A DNA stretch of 34,330 nucleotides, taken from positions 1-34,330 of IMG/VR virus record IMGVR_UViG_3300006118_000024; one strand, given 5' to 3'. Source of the DNA: a virus (Duplodnaviria > Caudoviricetes). Below, piece after piece: positions 8,146-29,515 of the stretch (position 1 is its first letter; each line of letters begins with the position of its first letter). The translations under genes were made by a program, and so were the position numbers. The notes under the pieces were generated by a model. That model saw nothing but the letters and a program-made list of their open reading frames with translations. It did no database searches and was not told where the DNA came from.

Positions 8146-8427
8146 ATGATTAATTCTTTTATATTGGCAATTCTTTCTCATGCTGTTCAAGCGATTATCG
8201 GTTCTGGCGTGTTTGCTGAAATTGAAAATCTTGTTCAAATTGAATTATCTAACGACAAGCCTGGTGCAGAGAAAGCGGCTTCAGTAAAAGCTAGTCTTAA
8301 TGCTATCAAAGGTGATGTAGGTGATGCGGCTCGTAATACTGCTGGTTGGGCTATAAACCTTGGTATTGAAACTGCTGTAGCGCAAGTAAATACTAAATTA
8401 GGTATTCCAGTTAAAACGGGCGCTTAA
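8146..8427 (+). CDS. Hypothetical lysis-cassette protein, 93 aa
   Basis: AGGA RBS; hydrophobic N-terminus; TAATG-coupled to the endolysin. Confidence 0.65.
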   Translation: MINSFILAILSHAVQAIIGSGVFAEIENLVQIELSNDKPGAEKAASVKASLNAIKGDVGDAARNTAGWAINLGIETAVAQVNTKLGIPVKTGA

Positions 8428-8861
8428 TGCAACTTAGCGAGCATTTTACTTTAGAGGAGCTGACATTTTCTGAAATGGCTATCCGTCATGGATTTAATAA
8501 TACGCCATCCCCAGAAGTGTTAGATAACCTTAAAGTATTGGCTAGTCATTTAGAGGACGTAAGAAATGTTCTTGGCAATCCTATTCGTGTTAGTAGTGGG
8601 TATCGCTCTCCCGTGGTCAATAGTCTTGTGGGCAGCAAACCTTCCAGCGCCCATGTTAAAGGTTTGGCGGCGGACTTTACTTGTCCAGATTTCGGTAGTG
8701 TTCGTGATATTGTCCATGCCATTATTGGGTCTGATATACAATACGACCAGGTTATTTATGAATTTAATAGTTGGTGTCACATCGGCTTCGCTGAAACTGG
8801 CAAAACGCCTCGCTTGCAAAGATTAATTATTGACCATGACGGAACAAGGAATTTTTCTTAA
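8427..8861 (+). CDS. Endolysin, Zn peptidase M15A family
   Basis: LSEHFTLEE N-terminus; SGYR.P.VN..VG...SSAH..GLAAD and WCH zinc-ligand motifs. Confidence 0.9.
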   Translation: MQLSEHFTLEELTFSEMAIRHGFNNTPSPEVLDNLKVLASHLEDVRNVLGNPIRVSSGYRSPVVNSLVGSKPSSAHVKGLAADFTCPDFGSVRDIVHAIIGSDIQYDQVIYEFNSWCHIGFAETGKTPRLQRLIIDHDGTRNFS

Positions 8862-9097: not shown

Positions 9098-9252
9098 AAA
9101 AGAAAAAAGGTTTATACGCTAATATTCACGCAAAACGTGAACGTATTAGAAAAGGAAGCGGAGAAAAAATGAGAACGCCAGGAAGTAAAGGCGCTCCCAC
9201 TGCTTCAGCATTTCGTAAGTCTAAAAAGACAGCTAGAAAAACTAGACGTTAG
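9094..9252 (+). CDS. Very basic 52-aa protein (not in ORF track)
   Basis: ATGA overlap with the previous gene; MKKKKGLYANIHAKRERIRKGSGEKMRTPGSKGAPTASAFRKSKKTARKTRR. Confidence 0.8.
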   Translation: MKKKKGLYANIHAKRERIRKGSGEKMRTPGSKGAPTASAFRKSKKTARKTRR

Positions 9253-9821
9253 AGTTTTCTGATACCGTATTGATAGCCAATTAATACGGTTTCAAGCTGT
9301 TCTGAAAAGATATTCACAAAAGCATCAATCGCTATTTTAGGCTGGTGTAGTACCCCTGGCATATCTTTCCATAGGTAGTCATCAAAAACCATAATTCCAC
9401 CAGGCTTTAGCATACGGAATGTTAAGCAAGCGTCCATTAGAACGTCTGGTGCTTGGTGGCTTCCGTCAATGTAAACAAAGTCAAACTCCATCTGCTGTCT
9501 GCGAATAGTATGAACGGACTTACCCATAAAAGAATAAACGCTTTGAGTAGGCTTCTTTGCAAGCTCAGTGTTGTGATTAAATTTTTGATACAAGTCGCGT
9601 GACTGCTCTGCGCTGTGTTCCTCGCTACCTTCCCATGTGTCATAGCAAAAGATAGCGCCATCGTCAGCCAAACCATTCTGTAAGAACCAACAAGTAGAGC
9701 GACCCTCGTAACTACCGACTTCAAGGAATAACTTGTTATCTGGCAAAAGACGCATCATCATCTTTAAGCCTTCAATGTTGTGGCTAAACCAGTCTTGTGA
9801 ATATTGATATTGTTTACTCAT
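9249..9821 (-). CDS. Class I SAM-dependent methyltransferase (Methyltransf_24-like)
   Basis: LEVGSYEGRST motif I, DTW, FDFVYIDGSH, LKPGGIMVFDDY; ATG at 9821 follows GGAG. Confidence 0.9.
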   Translation of the reverse strand: MSKQYQYSQDWFSHNIEGLKMMMRLLPDNKLFLEVGSYEGRSTCWFLQNGLADDGAIFCYDTWEGSEEHSAEQSRDLYQKFNHNTELAKKPTQSVYSFMGKSVHTIRRQQMEFDFVYIDGSHQAPDVLMDACLTFRMLKPGGIMVFDDYLWKDMPGVLHQPKIAIDAFVNIFSEQLETVLIGYQYGIRKL

Positions 9822-9918
9822 TACTATCTCCAAAAGGGTGGGGCTACTAACACTGTCTTGTCGAAGGACAATTTTTGTTATTTGTTAGTAAAAAAATTGT
9901 GTGCTTTCGCCCCATAAA

Positions 9919-12026: not shown

Positions 12027-12821
12027 CTAACCTTTCATGTGTCCTCTAGCAATGTTGATAATCCCGACAAGTTTAATCTTGTCTTTCGGGTCTAGGTTGC
12101 TAACAAAGGTTTCATTAGCATCGCGTAGCTCTTGGATTTTAGCTTCTTTATCCTCTACAGAGTATTTTGGGCTTTTCTCAATTCTATCTACAAGCGCACC
12201 AAAAGCACCTATCCAGCTATCTACATTCGCATGATAACTATAAGGCTCATTACCAGCAGGAAGCCAAAGAGCAATGCCCGTAGGATTTGGATTATTATTC
12301 TCGCGTAGTATCTCAACTTCGCCCATGTCTTTGATTGTCGGTTTATTATCAAAATCTTGCACTTCCTCTACTGAATAATGACCTAAAATGCAAGCAGGAT
12401 AGATACTACGAACCGCACGGCTAATTACACGAGCGCGTAGCATATCCTCTGGATATTTCTCCCACCCACTGCCAGCACGATATAGCCCTGCTTGTTTAGC
12501 CATATCTATTGTCCATTCAACTGTGATAGAACCGCCAGCCTCATGCGTAAATGTCCCCACGCACTTAGTCCTAGTGTTTTCTACCCACTGCACCTTGCCG
12601 CCAGCTAATTGAAACCTAGCTAAGATAGCTTGCGTCTTTAACGCTGGTCTTCCTTGAATAATGTCATACTCTTGCACTACTGTCGCTGGATGTTTATTCT
12701 CAGCTTGAGCAACTAGCATCACTGCCATGACTTGCTCTTTAGTTTTAAATCCATAAAAGCCAGAAGCAACAATACTTTCAGCCATTACAGTCATATCATT
12801 TACAGGAATAATTGCACTCAT
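12027..12821 (-). CDS. RecT/Red-beta-like single-strand annealing protein
   Basis: IIQGRPAL, WTIDMAKQAGL, WEKYPEDMLRARVISRAVR...P..ILG.YS.EE motifs; next to the YqaJ exonuclease. Confidence 0.85.
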   Translation of the reverse strand: MSAIIPVNDMTVMAESIVASGFYGFKTKEQVMAVMLVAQAENKHPATVVQEYDIIQGRPALKTQAILARFQLAGGKVQWVENTRTKCVGTFTHEAGGSITVEWTIDMAKQAGLYRAGSGWEKYPEDMLRARVISRAVRSIYPACILGHYSVEEVQDFDNKPTIKDMGEVEILRENNNPNPTGIALWLPAGNEPYSYHANVDSWIGAFGALVDRIEKSPKYSVEDKEAKIQELRDANETFVSNLDPKDKIKLVGIINIARGHMKG

Positions 12822-12997
12822 CGTTTACTCCTTTCAGCAATCATTTGTTCAGCAATATCAAAAGCCGCACTAGGCATCCTCTGACCCACTTCAGCGCTTT
12901 CAATCATTGGAATTAATGCCATCATAGCCAGACCAGCATAAAAGTCGCGTAAAACGTCTGTATATTCCTCGTCTGTATGAACAAAGTCGGTAGCCAT
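12818..12997 (-). CDS. Phage hypothetical 59-aa protein (not in ORF track)
   Basis: AAGGA RBS; LRDFYAGLAM...AFDIAEQMIAER matches a common small phage protein pattern. Confidence 0.75.
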   Translation of the reverse strand: MATDFVHTDEEYTDVLRDFYAGLAMMALIPMIESAEVGQRMPSAAFDIAEQMIAERSKR

Positions 12998-13000
12998 GTT

Positions 13001-13906
13001 TTATCCTTTCACCAAAAAGCGGCGTGAGCCTGGTTGTTCAATAACAAATTGTTCGTAAATGTCGGGCATGGCTTGTTTGAATAAATCAGCATTAAAGCGC
13101 TTGCTTGGCTTGCTAGTTTTCCATGAAACGAGGGTTTTACCTTCAAATGTCACAATTTCACTATGCTCGCCCATAATCGCACGAACTTTTGCTTCTAGCT
13201 CGTCAGCTTTATCCTCGTATTGCTTGATTAAATCTTTAATCTCACGCAATGCGTAGCATCCCTGCTCTAGTGACTGTGTAGCAACTAACCTACTACCATT
13301 GTCAATTGGATAAAGTAGCTTGGTTTGCTCTATTGTTTCGGGTTCGGGCAAGGTATCTGTATGAACGTGACCCCAAAAGACCGCCATTTGTTTAATAACG
13401 TCTTCTTTCATTTGCTCGGTAACGTCTAGCTCAATCGTTACGAACTCTTGACCACCGAAAAGCACGGCTAGAACTGCTTTATCTACTTGGTGAACTGCGG
13501 CTTCATGCACTAGCTGGACATAATCAGCAATAGGCATCCTGTTACTGTCAGCATCAAACTTGTTCCTAGCGCCAGCATTGTAGTTTTTGGCTTCCACCAG
13601 CACTCGCCCATCGCTACTAATGAAGTCAAAATGAGAGCGTAGCCAGCTATGATTAGGGTGAGTGAGCATATAGTCAGCATCTTTTAACTCCATTTGTAAT
13701 TTTGATTGTGCTAATTGACCAATAATAGGTTGCATAACATGACCCATCTGCACGGCTTCAATACCGCTTAAGTCTGGTCTTTCCATCTTGCCTTGCTTCT
13801 GCATGATGACTTCAATTGCTTTGCCGTTGACTGCTTGGCGGCTATCACTAGCCCACCATGCGGAATTGCGTATCTCTGGCTCAAAATCGCTTCTATCGTT
13901 TGCCAT
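13001..13906 (-). CDS. YqaJ/lambda-exonuclease-like recombination nuclease
   Basis: HP...WLRSHFD, LVEAK (PD-(D/E)xK), Y.QL.H, AVLFGG, FW motifs; SRRFLVK C-terminus. Confidence 0.88.
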   Translation of the reverse strand: MANDRSDFEPEIRNSAWWASDSRQAVNGKAIEVIMQKQGKMERPDLSGIEAVQMGHVMQPIIGQLAQSKLQMELKDADYMLTHPNHSWLRSHFDFISSDGRVLVEAKNYNAGARNKFDADSNRMPIADYVQLVHEAAVHQVDKAVLAVLFGGQEFVTIELDVTEQMKEDVIKQMAVFWGHVHTDTLPEPETIEQTKLLYPIDNGSRLVATQSLEQGCYALREIKDLIKQYEDKADELEAKVRAIMGEHSEIVTFEGKTLVSWKTSKPSKRFNADLFKQAMPDIYEQFVIEQPGSRRFLVKG

Positions 13907-15619: not shown

Positions 15620-16477
15620 TTAAGCCGCTAAACTTTCATCAATTGATAAAGCGCCCTCGTTTTTGATAAAATCCGCCGCTTTTTGTGCTAACGCCGCCGC
15701 TTTAAAAATCGCCTTGTTATCGTCGCGACAAGCCTTAAGCCAGCTTTCAATATAGCCAGCATGGCGTAAATCGCCTTGAATTTTATAATCCGCACATAGG
15801 AAAGCCGCGCTAATTTCCGCAACCAATTCTTCAAAGGCGTAAGCTGGATTGCCGTATCGCCCTTTATCTAGCTGGCGGTCTAAGCGGTGTTTAGCGCCCG
15901 TCCAATGTGCTAATTCATGAAAGGCTGTAGCGTAATAGTGAGAGTCACTGTCAAAGGCGCTTGGGTTCGGTAACTGGATAGAGTCACTACTTGGCATATA
16001 AAAAGCAGCATCGCCGCCGTGATTGATAATAGCGCCAGTCTCTTTTATTTTGCTTTCAATCGCTGGAATTGGATTAAAAGGTTCGCTAGGTTCGACGCTT
16101 GGCATAATCTTAATATCGGTTTGCTCCGCATTGAATACAAAATACGTTTTTAATACAGCAAATCGGTTTGACTCGGTATCGCCGCTATCGTTTACGCTCT
16201 CTTTTGTTACTTGCTTAAAGAATACAATTTCAGTGGCTTTTTCACCTTTTTTAACTTGCACGCCTTTTTCTTGCCACTGTTTATATGTAGCCCAAGCTGG
16301 AGAAGTAAATCCTGCCATACCTAAGATTAAAGTATTAATACCTTGATAAGGCTTTTGACTGATAAAATTCTTATCGGCCGTGCTATCGGCGCGCCATGGC
16401 TTAACCCAAGGTATCGCGCCCTTTTCCAATTGTGCAATTATGCTATCAGTTACTTTTTGATATACAGCGTTTGACAT
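15620..16477 (-). CDS. ardC: ArdC-family antirestriction protein (ssDNA-binding N-domain plus zincin domain)
   Basis: YQKVTDSII.QLE.G.IPW.KPW, Y.GIN, W.TYKQW...G.QVKKGEK, VFNAEQ, AFY.PSSD.I.LP, HELAHWTG, YAFEELVAE, HAGYI.SW. Confidence 0.93.
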   Translation of the reverse strand: MSNAVYQKVTDSIIAQLEKGAIPWVKPWRADSTADKNFISQKPYQGINTLILGMAGFTSPAWATYKQWQEKGVQVKKGEKATEIVFFKQVTKESVNDSGDTESNRFAVLKTYFVFNAEQTDIKIMPSVEPSEPFNPIPAIESKIKETGAIINHGGDAAFYMPSSDSIQLPNPSAFDSDSHYYATAFHELAHWTGAKHRLDRQLDKGRYGNPAYAFEELVAEISAAFLCADYKIQGDLRHAGYIESWLKACRDDNKAIFKAAALAQKAADFIKNEGALSIDESLAA

Positions 16478-21157: not shown

Positions 21158-22779
21158 GAATACCTACCAAGCCAGAGGAAAGAGAATTTTTCTATAAGGA
21201 GCTAATTCAGAAATGTTTAGTTTCGGCACAGACGCGTAGGGCTGATTACTCTACTCTACGTTCTTGGTATTTGTTTGGTGCTGGTGTGGATGAACCGCCA
21301 GCAATCTTTAATAAAATTTATCCACATACAGACCAGTTATCTAGTTTTCTTTATAGCGCTGAAACTACGCGCTTTTCAATTAATCTTGGTGCTTCAGTTA
21401 ATCCAATGGAGCATCAAAAAACTCCATCACTTACTCACGCACTTAATGATGAATGGCTTAACTCTAATGCTGACCAAGTATTCTCTACAGCATTAAACTG
21501 GGCTTTAACATACAACAGCACGTTCATTAAACTTGTTGTAAACAATGGCATCCATCCATACATGGTTGACCCAGGCTCAATGGGCGTACTAAGAGAAGAC
21601 GCGCCATACACTGACAGACAAGAAGCAATTGTTCAAACGTATTACATCACTAAGTCAGAATTATATTCACGTTTATATTCACATCCTAAACGCGAAGAAA
21701 TCATTAAACGCATTACTACTAGCGGATATAAAGAATCTACAGACCAGCCTAATGGGGTTGACCGTATTCTTATGTCGCAATCAAATCCAACAATTTACGG
21801 TAACGTAAACTTAGATTTAGGAGGAACTAACCGTTATAAGGCTGAAGTAGCCGAAGAAACAGTAGAAATGCGCGAATTATGGGTATGGAATGACGAAACA
21901 ATGGATTATCAGTGCGTAACCATCGCAAATCCTAGTGTAGTCATTTATGACCGTGAAGGTGGCTCATTATTCCTAAAAGGAGAGCTTCCTTTCATTCAAA
22001 TCTGTCCAAATCCACAATATGACTATTATTGGGGACAATCTGAGGTTCAACGCTTAGTTTTACTTCAAGAATTACGCAATAAGCGTATGGGTGAGATTTT
22101 AGAGTTACTTGCTAAACAAGTTAATCCTCCAACAGCCTTAACTGGCTTCAGTGGTATCTTAGATGAAAAGAATTTTGCGCTTAATCGTCCTGGTGGTTTG
22201 CTTTCAACTGATATGCCAAACGCAAAAGCTGACAGACTTGCTCCAGAAATGCCAGCAGACTTATACGAAACAATCCATGAGATTGACGCTATGTTTGCGG
22301 AAATGTCTGGCATAAGTAATGTGCTTTCTGGTCGTGGTGAAGCAGGGGTACGTTCACAAGGACACGCATCACAACTTGCTCGTCTAGGTTCTAGCCGTGC
22401 TAAAAAACGTGCGCTTGTTGTTGAAGACGCTTTAGAGAAAGTAGCAACGCTTTACTTGAAGCTGATGCAAGCCTATGATGATACTCACTTTAAAGATGTT
22501 GAAGGTCGCCCGTTTATTGCGGAACAATTTACAAAAGATTTTGTTGTGAAAGTGGATGCACACTCTAACAGCCCAATCTTTACAGAAGACTTAAGACAAC
22601 TTGCATTTAATCTATTTAAAGCGCAAGCTATCGACAAAGAATCATTGCTTGACTTGCTTGAACCGCCAATGAAACAATTGTTGAAAGACAAGCTAAAGAT
22701 AGCGGAAGCTAAAGCAGCTCAACAGCCGCAGCAGCAAAAGCCACAAGGCAAAGAAGCAAAATTAGAAGGAGCTGAATAA
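21154..22779 (+). CDS. Portal protein
   Basis: 541 aa downstream of TerL; LPF....P...YYWGQS.VQ.L..LQ..RN, NPP, SG.S....G and Gln-rich tail typical of podovirus portals. Confidence 0.85.
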   Translation: MRIPTKPEEREFFYKELIQKCLVSAQTRRADYSTLRSWYLFGAGVDEPPAIFNKIYPHTDQLSSFLYSAETTRFSINLGASVNPMEHQKTPSLTHALNDEWLNSNADQVFSTALNWALTYNSTFIKLVVNNGIHPYMVDPGSMGVLREDAPYTDRQEAIVQTYYITKSELYSRLYSHPKREEIIKRITTSGYKESTDQPNGVDRILMSQSNPTIYGNVNLDLGGTNRYKAEVAEETVEMRELWVWNDETMDYQCVTIANPSVVIYDREGGSLFLKGELPFIQICPNPQYDYYWGQSEVQRLVLLQELRNKRMGEILELLAKQVNPPTALTGFSGILDEKNFALNRPGGLLSTDMPNAKADRLAPEMPADLYETIHEIDAMFAEMSGISNVLSGRGEAGVRSQGHASQLARLGSSRAKKRALVVEDALEKVATLYLKLMQAYDDTHFKDVEGRPFIAEQFTKDFVVKVDAHSNSPIFTEDLRQLAFNLFKAQAIDKESLLDLLEPPMKQLLKDKLKIAEAKAAQQPQQQKPQGKEAKLEGAE

Positions 22780-22931
22780 TGCAAGGAACAATCGCACCAA
22801 AAGCAGACCAACCAAAAGTTTCCGCTAGGGACTTGAAAGCATTGGACGCTCCTGCTAATCTGCAATACAGAGCATCGGGGATTAAAACATTTAATCAGCG
22901 CAGCCCTTCAGCAAGGCAAGCAAGGAGGTAG
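22779..22931 (+). CDS. 50-aa basic protein (not in ORF track)
   Basis: AAGGAG RBS and TAATG coupling to portal; MQGTIAPKADQPKVSARDLK...SPSARQARR. Confidence 0.75.
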   Translation: MQGTIAPKADQPKVSARDLKALDAPANLQYRASGIKTFNQRSPSARQARR

Positions 22932-22932
22932 T

Positions 22933-22980
22933 ATGTCTGGTCGCAAATACGGTAAGAAAAGTCGCAAAGCTCGTAGATAA
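22933..22980 (+). CDS. 15-aa Arg/Lys-rich micropeptide MSGRKYGKKSRKARR
   Basis: AAGGAGGT RBS; starts 1 nt after the upstream stop; similar to 23056..23100. Confidence 0.65.
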   Translation: MSGRKYGKKSRKARR

Positions 22981-23055
22981 GTTTTTGTCGCAAGGCAAAA
23001 AAGGGGTGTGTGGCTCTCCCATAAAATGAGTTACATAACTTGCTAGGAGATAATC

Positions 23056-23100
23056 ATGGCTCGTGGTCGTAAACATAAAGGTCGTAAAGCACGTAAGTAA
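23056..23100 (+). CDS. 14-aa Arg/Lys-rich micropeptide MARGRKHKGRKARK
   Basis: AGGAG RBS 6 nt upstream; highly expressed-type codons (CGT, GGT, AAA). Confidence 0.7.
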   Translation: MARGRKHKGRKARK

Positions 23101-23180
23101 TTGAGGGAGGAAACTCCTAAAATTACTTCAGCTCAGACTGAAACCTCCCTTGGGGGTGGGAAGCAAAATATTACCCCTAC

Positions 23181-23209
23181 TTGACACTTATTTTTAATTG
23201 GTGTATTTA
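23181..23209 (+). promoter_or_regulatory. Possible promoter for the capsid genes
   Basis: TTGACA, 17 nt, TATTTA. Confidence 0.45.
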
Positions 23210-23231
23210 TTACACAAAATTATTTTAGGAT

Positions 23232-23720
23232 TTGGATATGAGCGTACCTTCAGACAAATTAATGGAACTAATGAAAGGCGGAGCGCCTGGCGCTGATGCT
23301 GGTGATACTCCTGCTTCTGCTGGTATGTCAGATAACGCATCTCCTCCAATGTCTTCTCCAATGTCCACACCAGAACCAAAAATGGGCAGCAAAGAAGCTG
23401 CAATGGTTAATCTATCAATGGCGATGGATTTAATTGAACAAACACTTCCTGCTCTTGGCAGTGAGTCAGACGAAGGTCAAAAAGCGTTGCAAGCACTCAA
23501 GAGCTTGACAGGCATTATTGGTCAGAAAAAAGGCAAGACAAATGAATTGCAGCAATCTGAGATTTTACAGATGCTACAAAGTTTACCCCAAGCTGGTGGC
23601 GCTACTCCAGAGGGTAAAGCAATTGCTCAAGCGCCAGTAATTCCAGGAATGACTCCTGGCGGCGGTGGTACTCCTCCAGGCGTTCCACCAAGCGCACCAC
23701 CTTCACCCCCACAAATGTAA
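23232..23720 (+). CDS. Head-module protein with Pro/Gly-rich disordered ends (start 23232 or 23238)
   Basis: Between portal and capsid; helical core. Confidence 0.7.
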   Translation: MDMSVPSDKLMELMKGGAPGADAGDTPASAGMSDNASPPMSSPMSTPEPKMGSKEAAMVNLSMAMDLIEQTLPALGSESDEGQKALQALKSLTGIIGQKKGKTNELQQSEILQMLQSLPQAGGATPEGKAIAQAPVIPGMTPGGGGTPPGVPPSAPPSPPQM

Positions 23721-23732
23721 AAGGAAATAATC

Positions 23733-23918
23733 ATGGACTTATTCAAACCACGCGGTTCAGCAGCAATCAGAAATCCATTAACTGATAACCAACAAAACGG
23801 TCAAATCACTAACCCACCACGTTATGCACATCTTGGCGGTTTAGATAGCGCTCGTAAAGGTGCTAACCAAAACAAAATGACTATCGTTCCACCAGGTAAC
23901 GGTAAACGAGTTATTTAA
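23733..23918 (+). CDS. Small head-module protein, 61 aa
   Basis: AAGGA RBS; in operon. Confidence 0.75.
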   Translation: MDLFKPRGSAAIRNPLTDNQQNGQITNPPRYAHLGGLDSARKGANQNKMTIVPPGNGKRVI

Positions 23919-23935: not shown

Positions 23936-24466
23936 ATGTCTTTAGAAGATTTAAGTTTTGAAGCAAGAGATGAACTTGCTGCTTTAGCTAAACAACTCGC
24001 TGAGAATCCTGCTACTCGCAAGGATTTTTTGCGTATGACAAAGCAAGTGAAGCCAGAAATGCCAATTCCAGAATTGGACATTGAAGACTACACACGAAAA
24101 GAAGTAGGCAAATCTAATGAACGTGTCGAACATTTAGAAGCCAAGTTACGTGAGAGAGATGCTTTAGACAAACTTAAAGAACGTCGTCAAAGTCTTTTGC
24201 GTGATGGTTTAGTAGCCAACGAAGAAGAAATTGATGAAGTAGAAAAAGTAATGTTGGAAAAAAATATTGCTGACCATAAAACGGCGGCTGAATATTTTGC
24301 GTGGATGAAACAATCTGCTGTTCCAACACCAACTGGTTACAATCCAAGCGCTATGAGCAAGTTTAACTTGAATGATTATTGGAAAAATCCAGTACAAGGC
24401 GCTCGGAATGAGGCAGCAAAAGCACTGAATGACTTGCGTAAACCACGCAAACCTATCGGTCTTTAA
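23936..24466 (+). CDS. Probable capsid scaffolding protein
   Basis: Charged coiled-coil protein immediately upstream of the major capsid gene. Confidence 0.7.
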   Translation: MSLEDLSFEARDELAALAKQLAENPATRKDFLRMTKQVKPEMPIPELDIEDYTRKEVGKSNERVEHLEAKLRERDALDKLKERRQSLLRDGLVANEEEIDEVEKVMLEKNIADHKTAAEYFAWMKQSAVPTPTGYNPSAMSKFNLNDYWKNPVQGARNEAAKALNDLRKPRKPIGL

Positions 24467-27541: not shown

Positions 27542-29515
27542 GTGGCACAATCTCCAGAGCAAAAAAAATCTTACCAGATAGTAAAGCAGTTTAAAGGCTT
27601 AAATACTAAGGCTAACAGAACTGCTATTGGTGAAGACGAATTTTCATGGCTAGAAAATGCCATGCCTATTGGGTATGCCAACCTTAAAATCACACCAGCT
27701 CAGAATAGTTTAGGAATTACTTTTGCAAATACCGTAACAGGATGGTTTTCCGTTAATATTAATCTTATTGATTATATTTTAGCGTTCCAATCAGATGGTA
27801 GTTGCGAATATGTAAATTTACAGACTAACACCAAAGGAACTGTAGCTACTGCTGGTAAGTTTTCTGGTTCTGGTATTAGCGTTAGCCAATGGAAAAACAC
27901 ACAAGCGCTAATTTTAGACCCGACTAATGGGTATTTCTATTGGGATGGCACTTATTTAGTGTCTGTAGGCTCTGTAGGCGCGATTTATATTACAAATGGT
28001 GGCACAGGGTACACTTCAGCACCAACTATCACTATAAGCGCTCCAAACGATGCTAACGGCATACAAGCAACTGCGACTGCTACTGTTACTGCTAACGTAG
28101 TAACAAGTATTTCATTAACTAACGCTGGTTCTGGTTATACAACTGCGCCAACGGTTACTTTTGCAGGGGTTGGAACAAATGCTGCGGCGATTGCTAGTGT
28201 TGTCACGTTTAAAACTGGTACGGTATCGGCGGTGGTTACGAACGGTGGTTCTGGCTATACTAATGCTGCCAATACTGTTGTCACTATTGCTGGTGGTGGC
28301 GGCACTAATGCTGCTGGTACTGCCATATTATCTGGCGGTCAAGTTGTTGGAATAGCAATTACCAATCCTGGTTCTGGATATACCAATTCATCAAATATCA
28401 CTGTGACCATCACGGGTGGTGGTGGCACTAATGCAAAAGCAACTGGCGTTATTAACTTAAGTAATAATGTTGGTATTGCGACTTTTTCTGGACGGGTTTG
28501 GATAGCTTATGGACGTACTGTTGCGTATAGCTCTGCTGCTTCTTTCACTGATTTTGTTACTGTGTCTGCTGGAACAGTTACCTTAACTGACAGCACATTA
28601 CACGGAAACATTATTTCTCTGTTATCAGCCAACAACTTTTTATACATTTTTGGTGATGACAGTATTAACGTATTTTCGGACGTTCGCGTCACCACAACTG
28701 GTTCAACTTTATTTACAAACACTAACGTATCGGCTTCTGTTGGAACTAAACGTGCTTATGCAATATTCCCATACTTCCGTTCAGTATTATTTATGAATGA
28801 TTACGGGGTGTATGCACTTGTTGGTTCAACCACCAGCAAATTGTCAGACCCGTTAGATGGCGTGTTTCCTAACATTGATTTTACAAATCCAATTTATGCT
28901 GGACAAGTATTGTTGAATAACATCTTGTGCGCTGTATTCAATTTTAGATATTACGATGCAACATTTACTCAAAGCTATCGTTACATTCAAGCGGTGTTTT
29001 TTGAGAAAAAATGGTTTATCACTAGCCAGGGCAATAGCCTTAAATACATTACGTCTGCTCCAGTAGGCGGTAAAATTACATTGTATGGCACTGACGGTAC
29101 TAACTTATATCAACTTTACGCTAATACTACATCAACAATATCTAGTATTGTTCAGACAGCATTGCTTCCTATGGGCGATAACATTCGCACTAAACAATCA
29201 TTAAAATTTGCTATTGAAGCTACATTAGGTACTGGTGGCTCATCGCTTACAGCAAGTATTGATTCAGAAACAGGGTCAAGCACTCAATACAGTTTAGGAA
29301 ACATAACTTCATGGTCTAATAGCCTTGGAAGCGTTATTCCTTGGTCAAATAACAGTTCAGCTTTAATTCCTTGGTCTGGCGGTAACGGTTATACGCTTTA
29401 CAAAACAGACTCACAAATGTTTGGTAAGTATTTAGGAATTACATCGCAATCTACAAGTCCTAATTTTGTTTATAATGGCTTTGAATTTGAACATGAACTA
29501 AGAGTAAGATTTTAA
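27542..29515 (+). CDS. Tail nozzle / DNA stabilisation protein (tubular protein B-like)
   Basis: F.GLNT N-terminus, GRVW..., VG...AI, GVY.L.G...SKLSDP propeller motifs; follows the adaptor. Confidence 0.75.
   Translation: MAQSPEQKKSYQIVKQFKGLNTKANRTAIGEDEFSWLENAMPIGYANLKITPAQNSLGITFANTVTGWFSVNINLIDYILAFQSDGSCEYVNLQTNTKGTVATAGKFSGSGISVSQWKNTQALILDPTNGYFYWDGTYLVSVGSVGAIYITNGGTGYTSAPTITISAPNDANGIQATATATVTANVVTSISLTNAGSGYTTAPTVTFAGVGTNAAAIASVVTFKTGTVSAVVTNGGSGYTNAANTVVTIAGGGGTNAAGTAILSGGQVVGIAITNPGSGYTNSSNITVTITGGGGTNAKATGVINLSNNVGIATFSGRVWIAYGRTVAYSSAASFTDFVTVSAGTVTLTDSTLHGNIISLLSANNFLYIFGDDSINVFSDVRVTTTGSTLFTNTNVSASVGTKRAYAIFPYFRSVLFMNDYGVYALVGSTTSKLSDPLDGVFPNIDFTNPIYAGQVLLNNILCAVFNFRYYDATFTQSYRYIQAVFFEKKWFITSQGNSLKYITSAPVGGKITLYGTDGTNLYQLYANTTSTISSIVQTALLPMGDNIRTKQSLKFAIEATLGTGGSSLTASIDSETGSSTQYSLGNITSWSNSLGSVIPWSNNSSALIPWSGGNGYTLYKTDSQMFGKYLGITSQSTSPNFVYNGFEFEHELRVRF

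Follow-up and report, generated by a model that had tools for sequence, protein, structure and literature searches.

Two tiny, strongly basic genes behind the portal gene of a podophage may encode a packaged counter-ion

The standard view holds that tailed phages pack naked DNA, with host ions and polyamines providing the screening (PMC6755088; papers given by PMC number are cited from extracts of their text), and the extract of PMC7096446 has arginine-rich capsid arms absent from motor-packaged phages. What, then, is encoded by two open reading frames (ORFs) of 15 and 14 codons that lie between the portal and head genes of a tailed phage? The initial annotation of the 34,330-nt virus record that carries them (the window, meaning this whole stretch of DNA) took their products for capsid-packaged, DNA-condensing peptides, each with eight Arg/Lys residues and no Asp or Glu, and knew of no description of them in podoviruses. 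Translation agrees with the composition, and we found no description of such peptides in any tailed phage in the open full-text literature, with few subscription papers covered. Both ORFs, both Shine-Dalgarno (SD) sites and both GNRA hairpins that had been reported are in place (Table 1).

The window is probably a whole, circularly permuted genome, because its ends overlap by 17 nt within one reading frame. It encodes a terminase, an SU10-type portal and adaptor, a major head protein and a tail protein with a nozzle fold. SU10_portal and SU10_adaptor both exceed their Pfam cut-offs, and the top Foldseek matches of the predicted nozzle model are the tail complexes of Kp7, A4, PhiM1, SU10, T7 and P22; sequence searches of the PDB with the portal and the nozzle gave no match. 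The modelled nozzle fold and the SU10-like portal and adaptor support podovirus morphology, bearing out the earlier assignment. All ten sequencing runs with at least 0.27 of the head module's words carry the label freshwater metagenome. One run, X1, contains 22600-23400 with no difference and may be the source; no RNA run was listed for the module, which says nothing about expression. Contigs were binned with two betaproteobacterial MAGs and also with Balneolaceae and Terrimicrobiaceae MAGs, and a host search among 396 genomes in the family of one genome (G001) matched only that genome itself. PHROG matches on the minus strand of the window include an anti-restriction protein, a RecE/RecT-like pair and a DNA methyltransferase-like gene (15620-16477, 12027-13906, 9249-9833).

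The gene order is portal, 50-aa gene, ORF1, hairpin, pseudoknot, ORF2, hairpins, TTGACA, 162-aa gene, 61-aa gene, 176-aa scaffold-like gene and capsid; the initial annotation did not include the TTGACA at 23181 or the inter-ORF pseudoknot. Both micro-genes do lie between portal and scaffold, as first described, but the 50-codon gene separates the portal from ORF1, and the 162-aa and 61-aa genes separate ORF2 from the scaffold-like gene. The latter has no Pfam or PHROG profile match, and a weak lead (0.86) connects it to a cluster with PF09306 on 22% of members. The 50-codon gene is missing from the slot downstream of the portal in the distant lineages L565, L577, L578, L582 and L584.

Table 1. 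Micro-gene cassette and surrounding genes, by window position
Feature	Position	Strand	Basis and remarks
Portal gene, 541 aa	21154..22779	+	Pfam SU10_portal, E 3.9e-11; PHROG portal
50-codon gene, basic C-terminal tail	22779..22931	+	Homologues at the same place in relatives; ORF1's SD inside its 3' end
ORF1 SD, AAGGAGGT	22922..22929	+	Sequence; within end of 50-codon gene
Micro-gene ORF1, 15 aa, MSGRKYGKKSRKARR, net +8, 1.8 kDa	22933..22980	+	Translation, comparison with relatives
GCAA-loop hairpin after ORF1	22982..23001	+	z = -4.2; stem common in relatives, loop variable
Predicted H-type pseudoknot	23003..23034	+	Covariation; stem 1 23003-06 with 23017-20, stem 2 23010-16 with 23028-34
ORF2 SD, AGGAG	23045..23049	+	Sequence
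Micro-gene ORF2, 14 aa, MARGRKHKGRKARK, net +8, 1.7 kDa	23056..23100	+	Translation, comparison with relatives
GAAA-loop hairpin after ORF2	23105..23118	+	RNA folding
G/C hairpin closing the cassette	23151..23179	+	Poor U-tract here, U-tract in some relatives; not called a terminator by consensus scan
Promoter-like site, perfect TTGACA and imperfect -10 TATTTA	23181..23209	+	Upstream of head genes; absent from consensus-scan list
162-aa Pro/Gly-rich gene	23232..23720	+	Gene list
61-aa basic gene	23733..23918	+	Net charge median +7 in all three groups
176-aa scaffold-like gene	23936..24466	+	Label inferred from position
Major capsid protein, 336 aa	24508..25518	+	phrog_9953, E 4.7e-38
Short-tail nozzle protein	27542..29515	+	Predicted structure, pLDDT 75; Foldseek

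A filter for an SD site, an ATG start, 9-30 codons, at least 40% Lys/Arg and no acidic residue matched only ORF1 and ORF2 on either strand of the whole window; in controls it matched 0/68 reverse strands, 0/1,562 other tiles and 4/3,400 shuffles. Retrieval by portal gave 80 loci, 68 of them with sufficient downstream DNA, and all 68 of these close loci carry an SD-led, Lys/Arg-rich ORF in the gap (two in 56, one in 11 and three in one, after dropping two false matches, L075 and L077, which lie out of frame in the 162-aa gene). A second locus set has a micro-gene in the slot in all 69 assessable loci, the remaining nine of 78 being too short, and a DNA pattern for the ORF2 peptide retrieved 120 loci, 117 with portal, 162-aa or capsid homology and three that are short. 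SD/ATG filters overlook weak-SD or GTG starts, as in L084, L118, L139, L285 and L130.

When ORF2 was defined by its position behind the pseudoknot, with no composition filter, 37 distinct 8-codon ends gave a pS of 0.557 and a pN of 0.132 (pN/pS 0.24), with differences of 0.44 at third codon positions and of 0.14 and 0.13 at the others. The same peptide is encoded by up to seven codon strings, serine codons swap between AGC and TCT, stop codons swap among TAA, TAG and TGA, and the SD and stop are retained across 39-100% portal identity. Contigs of four DNA runs, one of which did not cover the ORFs, contain no variant within either ORF. The comparison indicates that both ORFs are genuine genes under selection; the synteny check proposed with the initial annotation thus found conservation of the ORF with its ribosome-binding site and the synonymous variation expected of a gene (68/68 loci against 0/1,562 tiles). 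That gene callers skip such ORFs is likewise apparent in GenBank MW202825 and MW202753, which carry the pair and in which reverse-strand hypotheticals are called instead.

Across 581 loci we collected 370 distinct ORFs encoding 189 distinct peptides of 9-23 aa, a set in which the filter itself imposes at least 40% Lys/Arg, the loci partly overlap and about five peptides are probably off-slot. Net charge is +7 or +8 in 160 of the 189. Arg (31%) and Lys (30%) dominate, with almost no Leu, Phe, Trp or Glu (Phe about 0%, no Trp); nearly all the peptides end in Lys/Arg, and they share no leader. Arg and Lys interchange freely with net charge held, and at depth the sequences have diverged completely, yet length and net charge keep to a narrow range, a pattern indicating that selection is mainly on charge. 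Within the main clade, ORF2 has a three-residue RK-x repeat without Arg runs and ORF1 is a separate type; this repeat and the two paralogue types are held more tightly than bare charge requires. The described use of preferred codons holds in general (CGT/CGC make up 554/625 Arg codons in micro-genes versus 133/228 in 16 window genes), but the last Arg of ORF1 is a non-preferred AGA.

Because both the ORF1 type and the ORF2 type span the portal tree of the whole clade, the pair is old. The proposed duplication for dosage therefore applies only loosely: genomes do carry zero to three copies, but the two types are distinct, old paralogues clade-wide. Two basic micro-ORFs also lie right after the portal in the distant L565 (56% portal identity), L578-L581 and L582-L583 (51%), L584 (49%) and L577 (39%); their peptide sequences are unrelated and their charge is similar, and all five lineages assessed keep the slot. 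In L577 (4785-4882) the two micro-ORFs, of 9 and 22 aa, overlap stop to start and are thereby coupled. Three micro-genes are present in a sub-lineage made up of L498, L501, L508, L521, L572 and L059.

Among 80 loci retrieved with a 65%-identical portal, 46 of the 74 assessable have neither micro-gene nor pseudoknot, a count that follows the reassignment of two matches (L262, L265) to internal starts of the 50-aa gene and includes 17 gaps read directly; their capsid protein is 81-87% identical. In a midpoint-rooted portal tree these loci nest among peptide-bearing lineages and, since peptides also occur at more distant portals, loss in one sister lineage is the simpler reading. The micro-genes therefore appear, from this comparison, to be dispensable. 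We saw no charge compensation in the peptide-less lineage (medians of -7 versus -8 for the capsid, -2 versus -1 for the scaffold and +7 in both for the 61-aa protein). Its sister group has one longer, Met/Pro/Lys-rich peptide; L085 (5637-5699) and L212-L225 carry a single variant of this composition, 18-25 aa long and without a pseudoknot. The 50-aa gene of the peptide-less lineage has a tail ending in Tyr-Gly-Arg/Lys-rich strings that resemble ORF1-type starts, and it is a speculative possibility that ORF1 derives from this basic tail.

The lack of a hydrophobic core, the narrow charge, the drifting sequence, the strong translation signals and the slot in the head module would be explained most simply by a bulk polyanion binder. 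More specifically, we give even chances to the peptides being a bulk, packaged, polyamine-like counter-ion that neutralises the DNA partly and is not a full condenser. The ORFs would yield unstructured +8 peptides, made in bulk late in infection; high output is suggested by the strong SD sites, the preferred codons, the one to three gene copies and the RNA structures that flank them. Since no targeting leader exists, the peptides would be carried into the head with the DNA or enter through procapsid openings, and would be trapped upon maturation. About 1,000 copies would screen about a tenth of the phosphates, and the effect might be easier filling, or particle stability in dilute water, where small ions can exit the capsid. 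"Condensing", the word first used, overstates this: neutralising 69,000 phosphates would take about 8,600 copies, far beyond what fits. With polyvalent cations, the pressure in the capsid falls and ejection can be inhibited in part (PMC2771126). On both counts, screening of part of the charge is more plausible than condensation. DNA exit is also slower under stronger screening (PMC10450192), so the benefit of the peptides is not obvious.

A counter-ion inside the head would occupy capsid space, and genome size offers a confounded hint of this. Among contigs of at least 33 kb, median size is 38.0 kb with no peptide (n=8), 37.0 kb with one (n=8) and 34.8 kb with two (n=31), in a comparison of contigs that we picked ourselves, with mostly unproven completeness, overlapping ranges, a zero class that is one lineage and P values that take no account of relatedness; records called complete have medians of 38.0, 37.3 and 35.5 kb (n=7, 3 and 9). 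Capsid (333-336 aa) and scaffold (176 aa) lengths are equal across all groups, and three distant two-peptide contigs of 37.4-39.5 kb are counter-cases. By arithmetic, the 3.5-kb difference corresponds roughly to the volume of 1,000 peptides and to a tenth of the 69,000 phosphates. A more detailed picture, which we regard as doubtful though worth stating, is that a freshwater podophage family loads about 1,000 fixed-valence +8 peptides per head from a pseudoknot-capped mini-message, trading about a tenth of its genome capacity for tuned pressure. Some contigs are over-long: L297 has 42,500 nt, and L258/L259 have 41,734 nt with the portal present twice, 38.1 kb apart.

The peptides would work most like microvirus J, adenovirus VII/Mu or polyamines, by analogy, yet they are not members of the classes of J, the T4 internal proteins or N/boxB. 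J of phiX174 (Microviridae) is an interior DNA-packaging protein, very small and basic (PMC11945456). The likeness to J and to gokushovirus VP8 is that of very small, strongly basic, phage-encoded peptides, with no homology claimed; J is present as 60 ordered copies in a T=1 ssDNA capsid, whereas the micro-gene peptides are shorter and belong to a motor-filled dsDNA podophage with zero to three gene copies. Nor is this phage an ssDNA microvirus with an F/VP1 capsid, as it has a terminase, a portal, a tailed-phage head protein and a nozzle. J of phiX174 also has an aromatic C-terminal capsid anchor, which is absent here, the C-termini being basic. Adenovirus VII and Mu are cut from precursors and baculovirus P6.9 is phospho-regulated; the phage peptides, in contrast to these polycations of eukaryotic viruses, are directly translated, with Lys equal to Arg and no long Arg runs. 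They share with them the character of virus-encoded polycations. Adenovirus VII screens DNA-DNA repulsion. Encapsidation can proceed without it, and such viruses have a lower packing density (PMC6755088), a parallel to the shorter genomes in this family.

Host polyamines are our proposed working model for the peptides. Packaged phage DNA is screened by polyamines and cations (PMC6755088), among them polyvalent cations of the spermidine/spermine type (PMC2771126, PMC7096446). Polyamines are metabolites that diffuse through the shell, whereas a +8 peptide of 1.7 kDa comes from a gene and might stay trapped. There is also a precedent for the position: genes for tiny virion proteins come straight after the portal in mycobacteriophage Patience, and one of them, gp111 (37 codons), went without annotation until its product was detected in particles (PMC4324244). 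The likeness of Patience gp111 and gp9-gp18 lies in tiny genes directly after the portal, compared by description only, and the difference in Patience being a siphovirus; the words "basic" and "arginine" do not occur in the main text on Patience, which thus states no polycation role (PMC4324244).

In favour of a packaged counter-ion is the slot, fixed between the portal and the head genes even where portal identity is as low as 39%; dispensability in one lineage and the probable separation of the cassette from the capsid transcript count against it. The cassette lies upstream of a conserved TTGACA that precedes the capsid genes (TTGAC followed by A, T or C is present in the interval before the head genes in 196/201 loci, a few first matches sitting in hairpins), so the micro-genes are probably on the portal's transcript and not the capsid's, co-transcribed with terminase and portal. 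In most relatives the loop of the G/C hairpin at 23151-23179, just before the TTGACA, is A-rich; only some have a U-tract, and the hairpin may be more than a terminator. Elsewhere the arrangement varies. In L565 a near-consensus promoter precedes the pair and a terminator-like site follows it; in L578 a promoter-like site comes immediately ahead of the pseudoknot; a promoter scan of L577 and L582 found none. L565 (3048-3330) forms a self-contained unit of promoter (TTGACA-16-TATATT), a different structured leader, two peptides and a terminator-like hairpin; judged by eye, this leader could form another pseudoknot.

Co-transcription with terminase and portal would suit a cytoplasmic polycation that, late in infection, coats the phage DNA as it replicates or else the nucleoid of the host (for compaction, shut-off or nuclease shielding) and is stripped off at the portal. 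We allow this a modest chance: the same charge, codon and copy-number evidence fits, the peptides have no capsid-targeting leader and the genes are dispensable, but the genome-length gradient, though weak, and the fixed head-gene slot are left unexplained.

RNA structure around the ORFs raises a second alternative. The GNRA loops that the initial annotation reported are not conserved: only 21/85 and 32/76 distinct hairpins in relatives have one, with 15 more of the 85 readable as C+GNRA five-base loops; a contig variant at 22991 still gives a GNRA loop in the hairpin after ORF1. In 111 aligned pseudoknot sequences, 88.7% of cells pair versus 79.5% in shuffled alignments, with slid controls lower, and both-side changes in the stems number 132 cells versus 32 shuffled; these are related sequences, so that the figures imply no probability, and some rows, including the window's, are mis-registered. 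A structure-guided parse, which leans toward the structure, gave 102 distinct cores in 143/150 segments, with stem-1 pairs kept in 96-102 of the 102, a 2x2 element that is a tandem wobble or pyrimidine mismatch, and 17-26 nt from pseudoknot end to ATG. The window's copy is a diverged member and ends about 21 nt before ORF2. A metagenome search by pseudoknot pattern only returned 120 matches, with an ORF 19-24 nt downstream in all 119 assessable. We excluded from the counts the labels of a loose detector used with the portal tree, which gave false calls.

A search with model R1 found its best match in the window at the pseudoknot copy (E 0.013), which had belonged to the training set. R1 matched 12/93 sources, ten with an ORF2-type gene and two ending too soon, and also L578, L582 and L584; it had no match in L565, L577, L498, L572 or L059. 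No Rfam family matches: 2 kb of the window gave two chance-level hits with an E limit of 5, and 12 loci gave one unrelated hit with an E limit of 1, none of them scoring at or near a gathering threshold. The open full-text literature covered does not describe the pseudoknot, which the 224 RNA motifs of PMC5737381 might include. We consider it a new-looking structured RNA, as set apart from Rfam only. H-type pseudoknots occur at the ribosome-binding sites of the T4 gene 32 operator and the preQ1 and SAM-II riboswitches. The predicted element resembles these in its topology and its position 5' of the SD, but its 3' end lies before the SD, with which it forms no pairs. Ending just beyond the expected ribosome footprint, it probably protects or primes the ORF2 message.

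The peptides might instead be arginine-rich-motif ligands of these hairpins or the pseudoknot that feed back on the translation of their own genes or govern read-through into the head genes, or they might bind ribosomes. The tie of pseudoknot to ORF in 119/119 assessable pattern matches, its persistence to 49% portal identity and the kept non-canonical 2x2 element, which could bind a ligand, all fit. Peptides occur without the pseudoknot in L059, L075-L077, the L085 group, the L272 group and L577, however, the pseudoknot persists through complete turnover of the peptide sequence, the GNRA loops lack conservation and the head genes have their own promoter-like site, leaving regulation as the main role a small chance. 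Lambda N, the obvious comparison, joins its Arg-rich motif to a larger polymerase-binding domain, whereas the ORFs here end after 14-15 codons with no fixed frame to the downstream ORF; the conserved GNRA-like boxB hairpin also has no match in loops of the frequencies given above. Feedback binding to the pseudoknot would be compatible with a packaged counter-ion.

A slim chance remains for a helper of entry or lysis, either ejected with the DNA to shield it or block host defence, or acting as free peptides that weaken the outer membrane via LPS. Patchy presence suits a host-dependent accessory role, and cationic cell-penetrating peptides have a similar composition. The peptides offer no hydrophobic face for membrane insertion, the endolysin gene is distant (8427-8861, PHROG), and they are too short, and at depth too variable, for a specific protein target. 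The T4 internal proteins are a precedent for ejection: IPI, IPII and IPIII are non-essential small proteins of the head interior, present in hundreds of copies (about 360), and IPI is injected and inhibits GmrSD (PMC9958956). The micro-genes share with them non-essentiality, here by comparison only (46/74 loci without the genes). IPII and IPIII differ in having a capsid-targeting sequence of about 10 aa, and the internal proteins are clipped by gp21; the micro-gene peptides are about the size of that leader alone, and scans of 33 and 26 proteins (PHROG, Pfam) gave no prohead protease.

It is very unlikely that the act of translation matters and the peptide does not, as in leader attenuation, an Arg/Lys-tRNA sensor or a cassette for ORF1-ORF2 read-through or frameshifting. 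Short ORFs dominated by two amino acids and interleaved with RNA structure would be expected of such a device, but their codons are common and not rare, Arg and Lys swap freely with net charge held, and the downstream genes have their own promoter-like site. Spacing from the ORF1 stop to the ORF2 ATG is even over the three frames (35, 32 and 36 of 103), on which ground ORF1-ORF2 fusion by read-through or frameshift was rejected. Chance ORFs in a structured non-coding region have a negligible probability, given the filter controls, the excess of third-position differences and the SD and stop kept across 39-100% portal identity.

If the peptides are indeed packaged counter-ions, a dedicated polycation gene in a podophage head module would be an exception to the naked-DNA view. 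On the more detailed and doubtful picture of tuned pressure given above, naked packing would not hold for all tailed phages, and the number of gene copies would serve as an evolvable dial of that pressure. The natural series of zero, one, two and three copies on the same capsid makes a link between counter-ion load, genome length and ejection testable, and the family supplies a structured RNA, the pseudoknot, without an Rfam entry. Similar genes may be widely missed, because they are invisible to gene callers and probably to tryptic proteomics.

The interval around the micro-genes also receives other genes. Extra charged small ORFs of about 50-70 codons lie between portal and micro-genes in L007 (3616-3771), L071, L018 and L496, which suggests that this interval is an insertion hot spot; in L578 (4987 onward), L582 and L584, one or two extra genes of about 170-210 aa lie between micro-genes and head genes. 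We found no equivalent micro-gene near the head genes of five phage records with a 24-29% identical capsid (Mx8, BUCT555, Mwe-JY13, ppBjS10J-1 and ct52p938). The 61-aa basic protein (23733-23918) is kept in all groups examined, including the peptide-less lineage and loci with portals at 39-51%, and is a candidate inner-capsid or cement peptide. Stenotrophomonas phage BUCT555 (L207, 2930-3088) has an annotated 52-aa, Lys-rich hypothetical protein encoded directly after a portal-sized gene, a possible testable analogue in a cultured phage.
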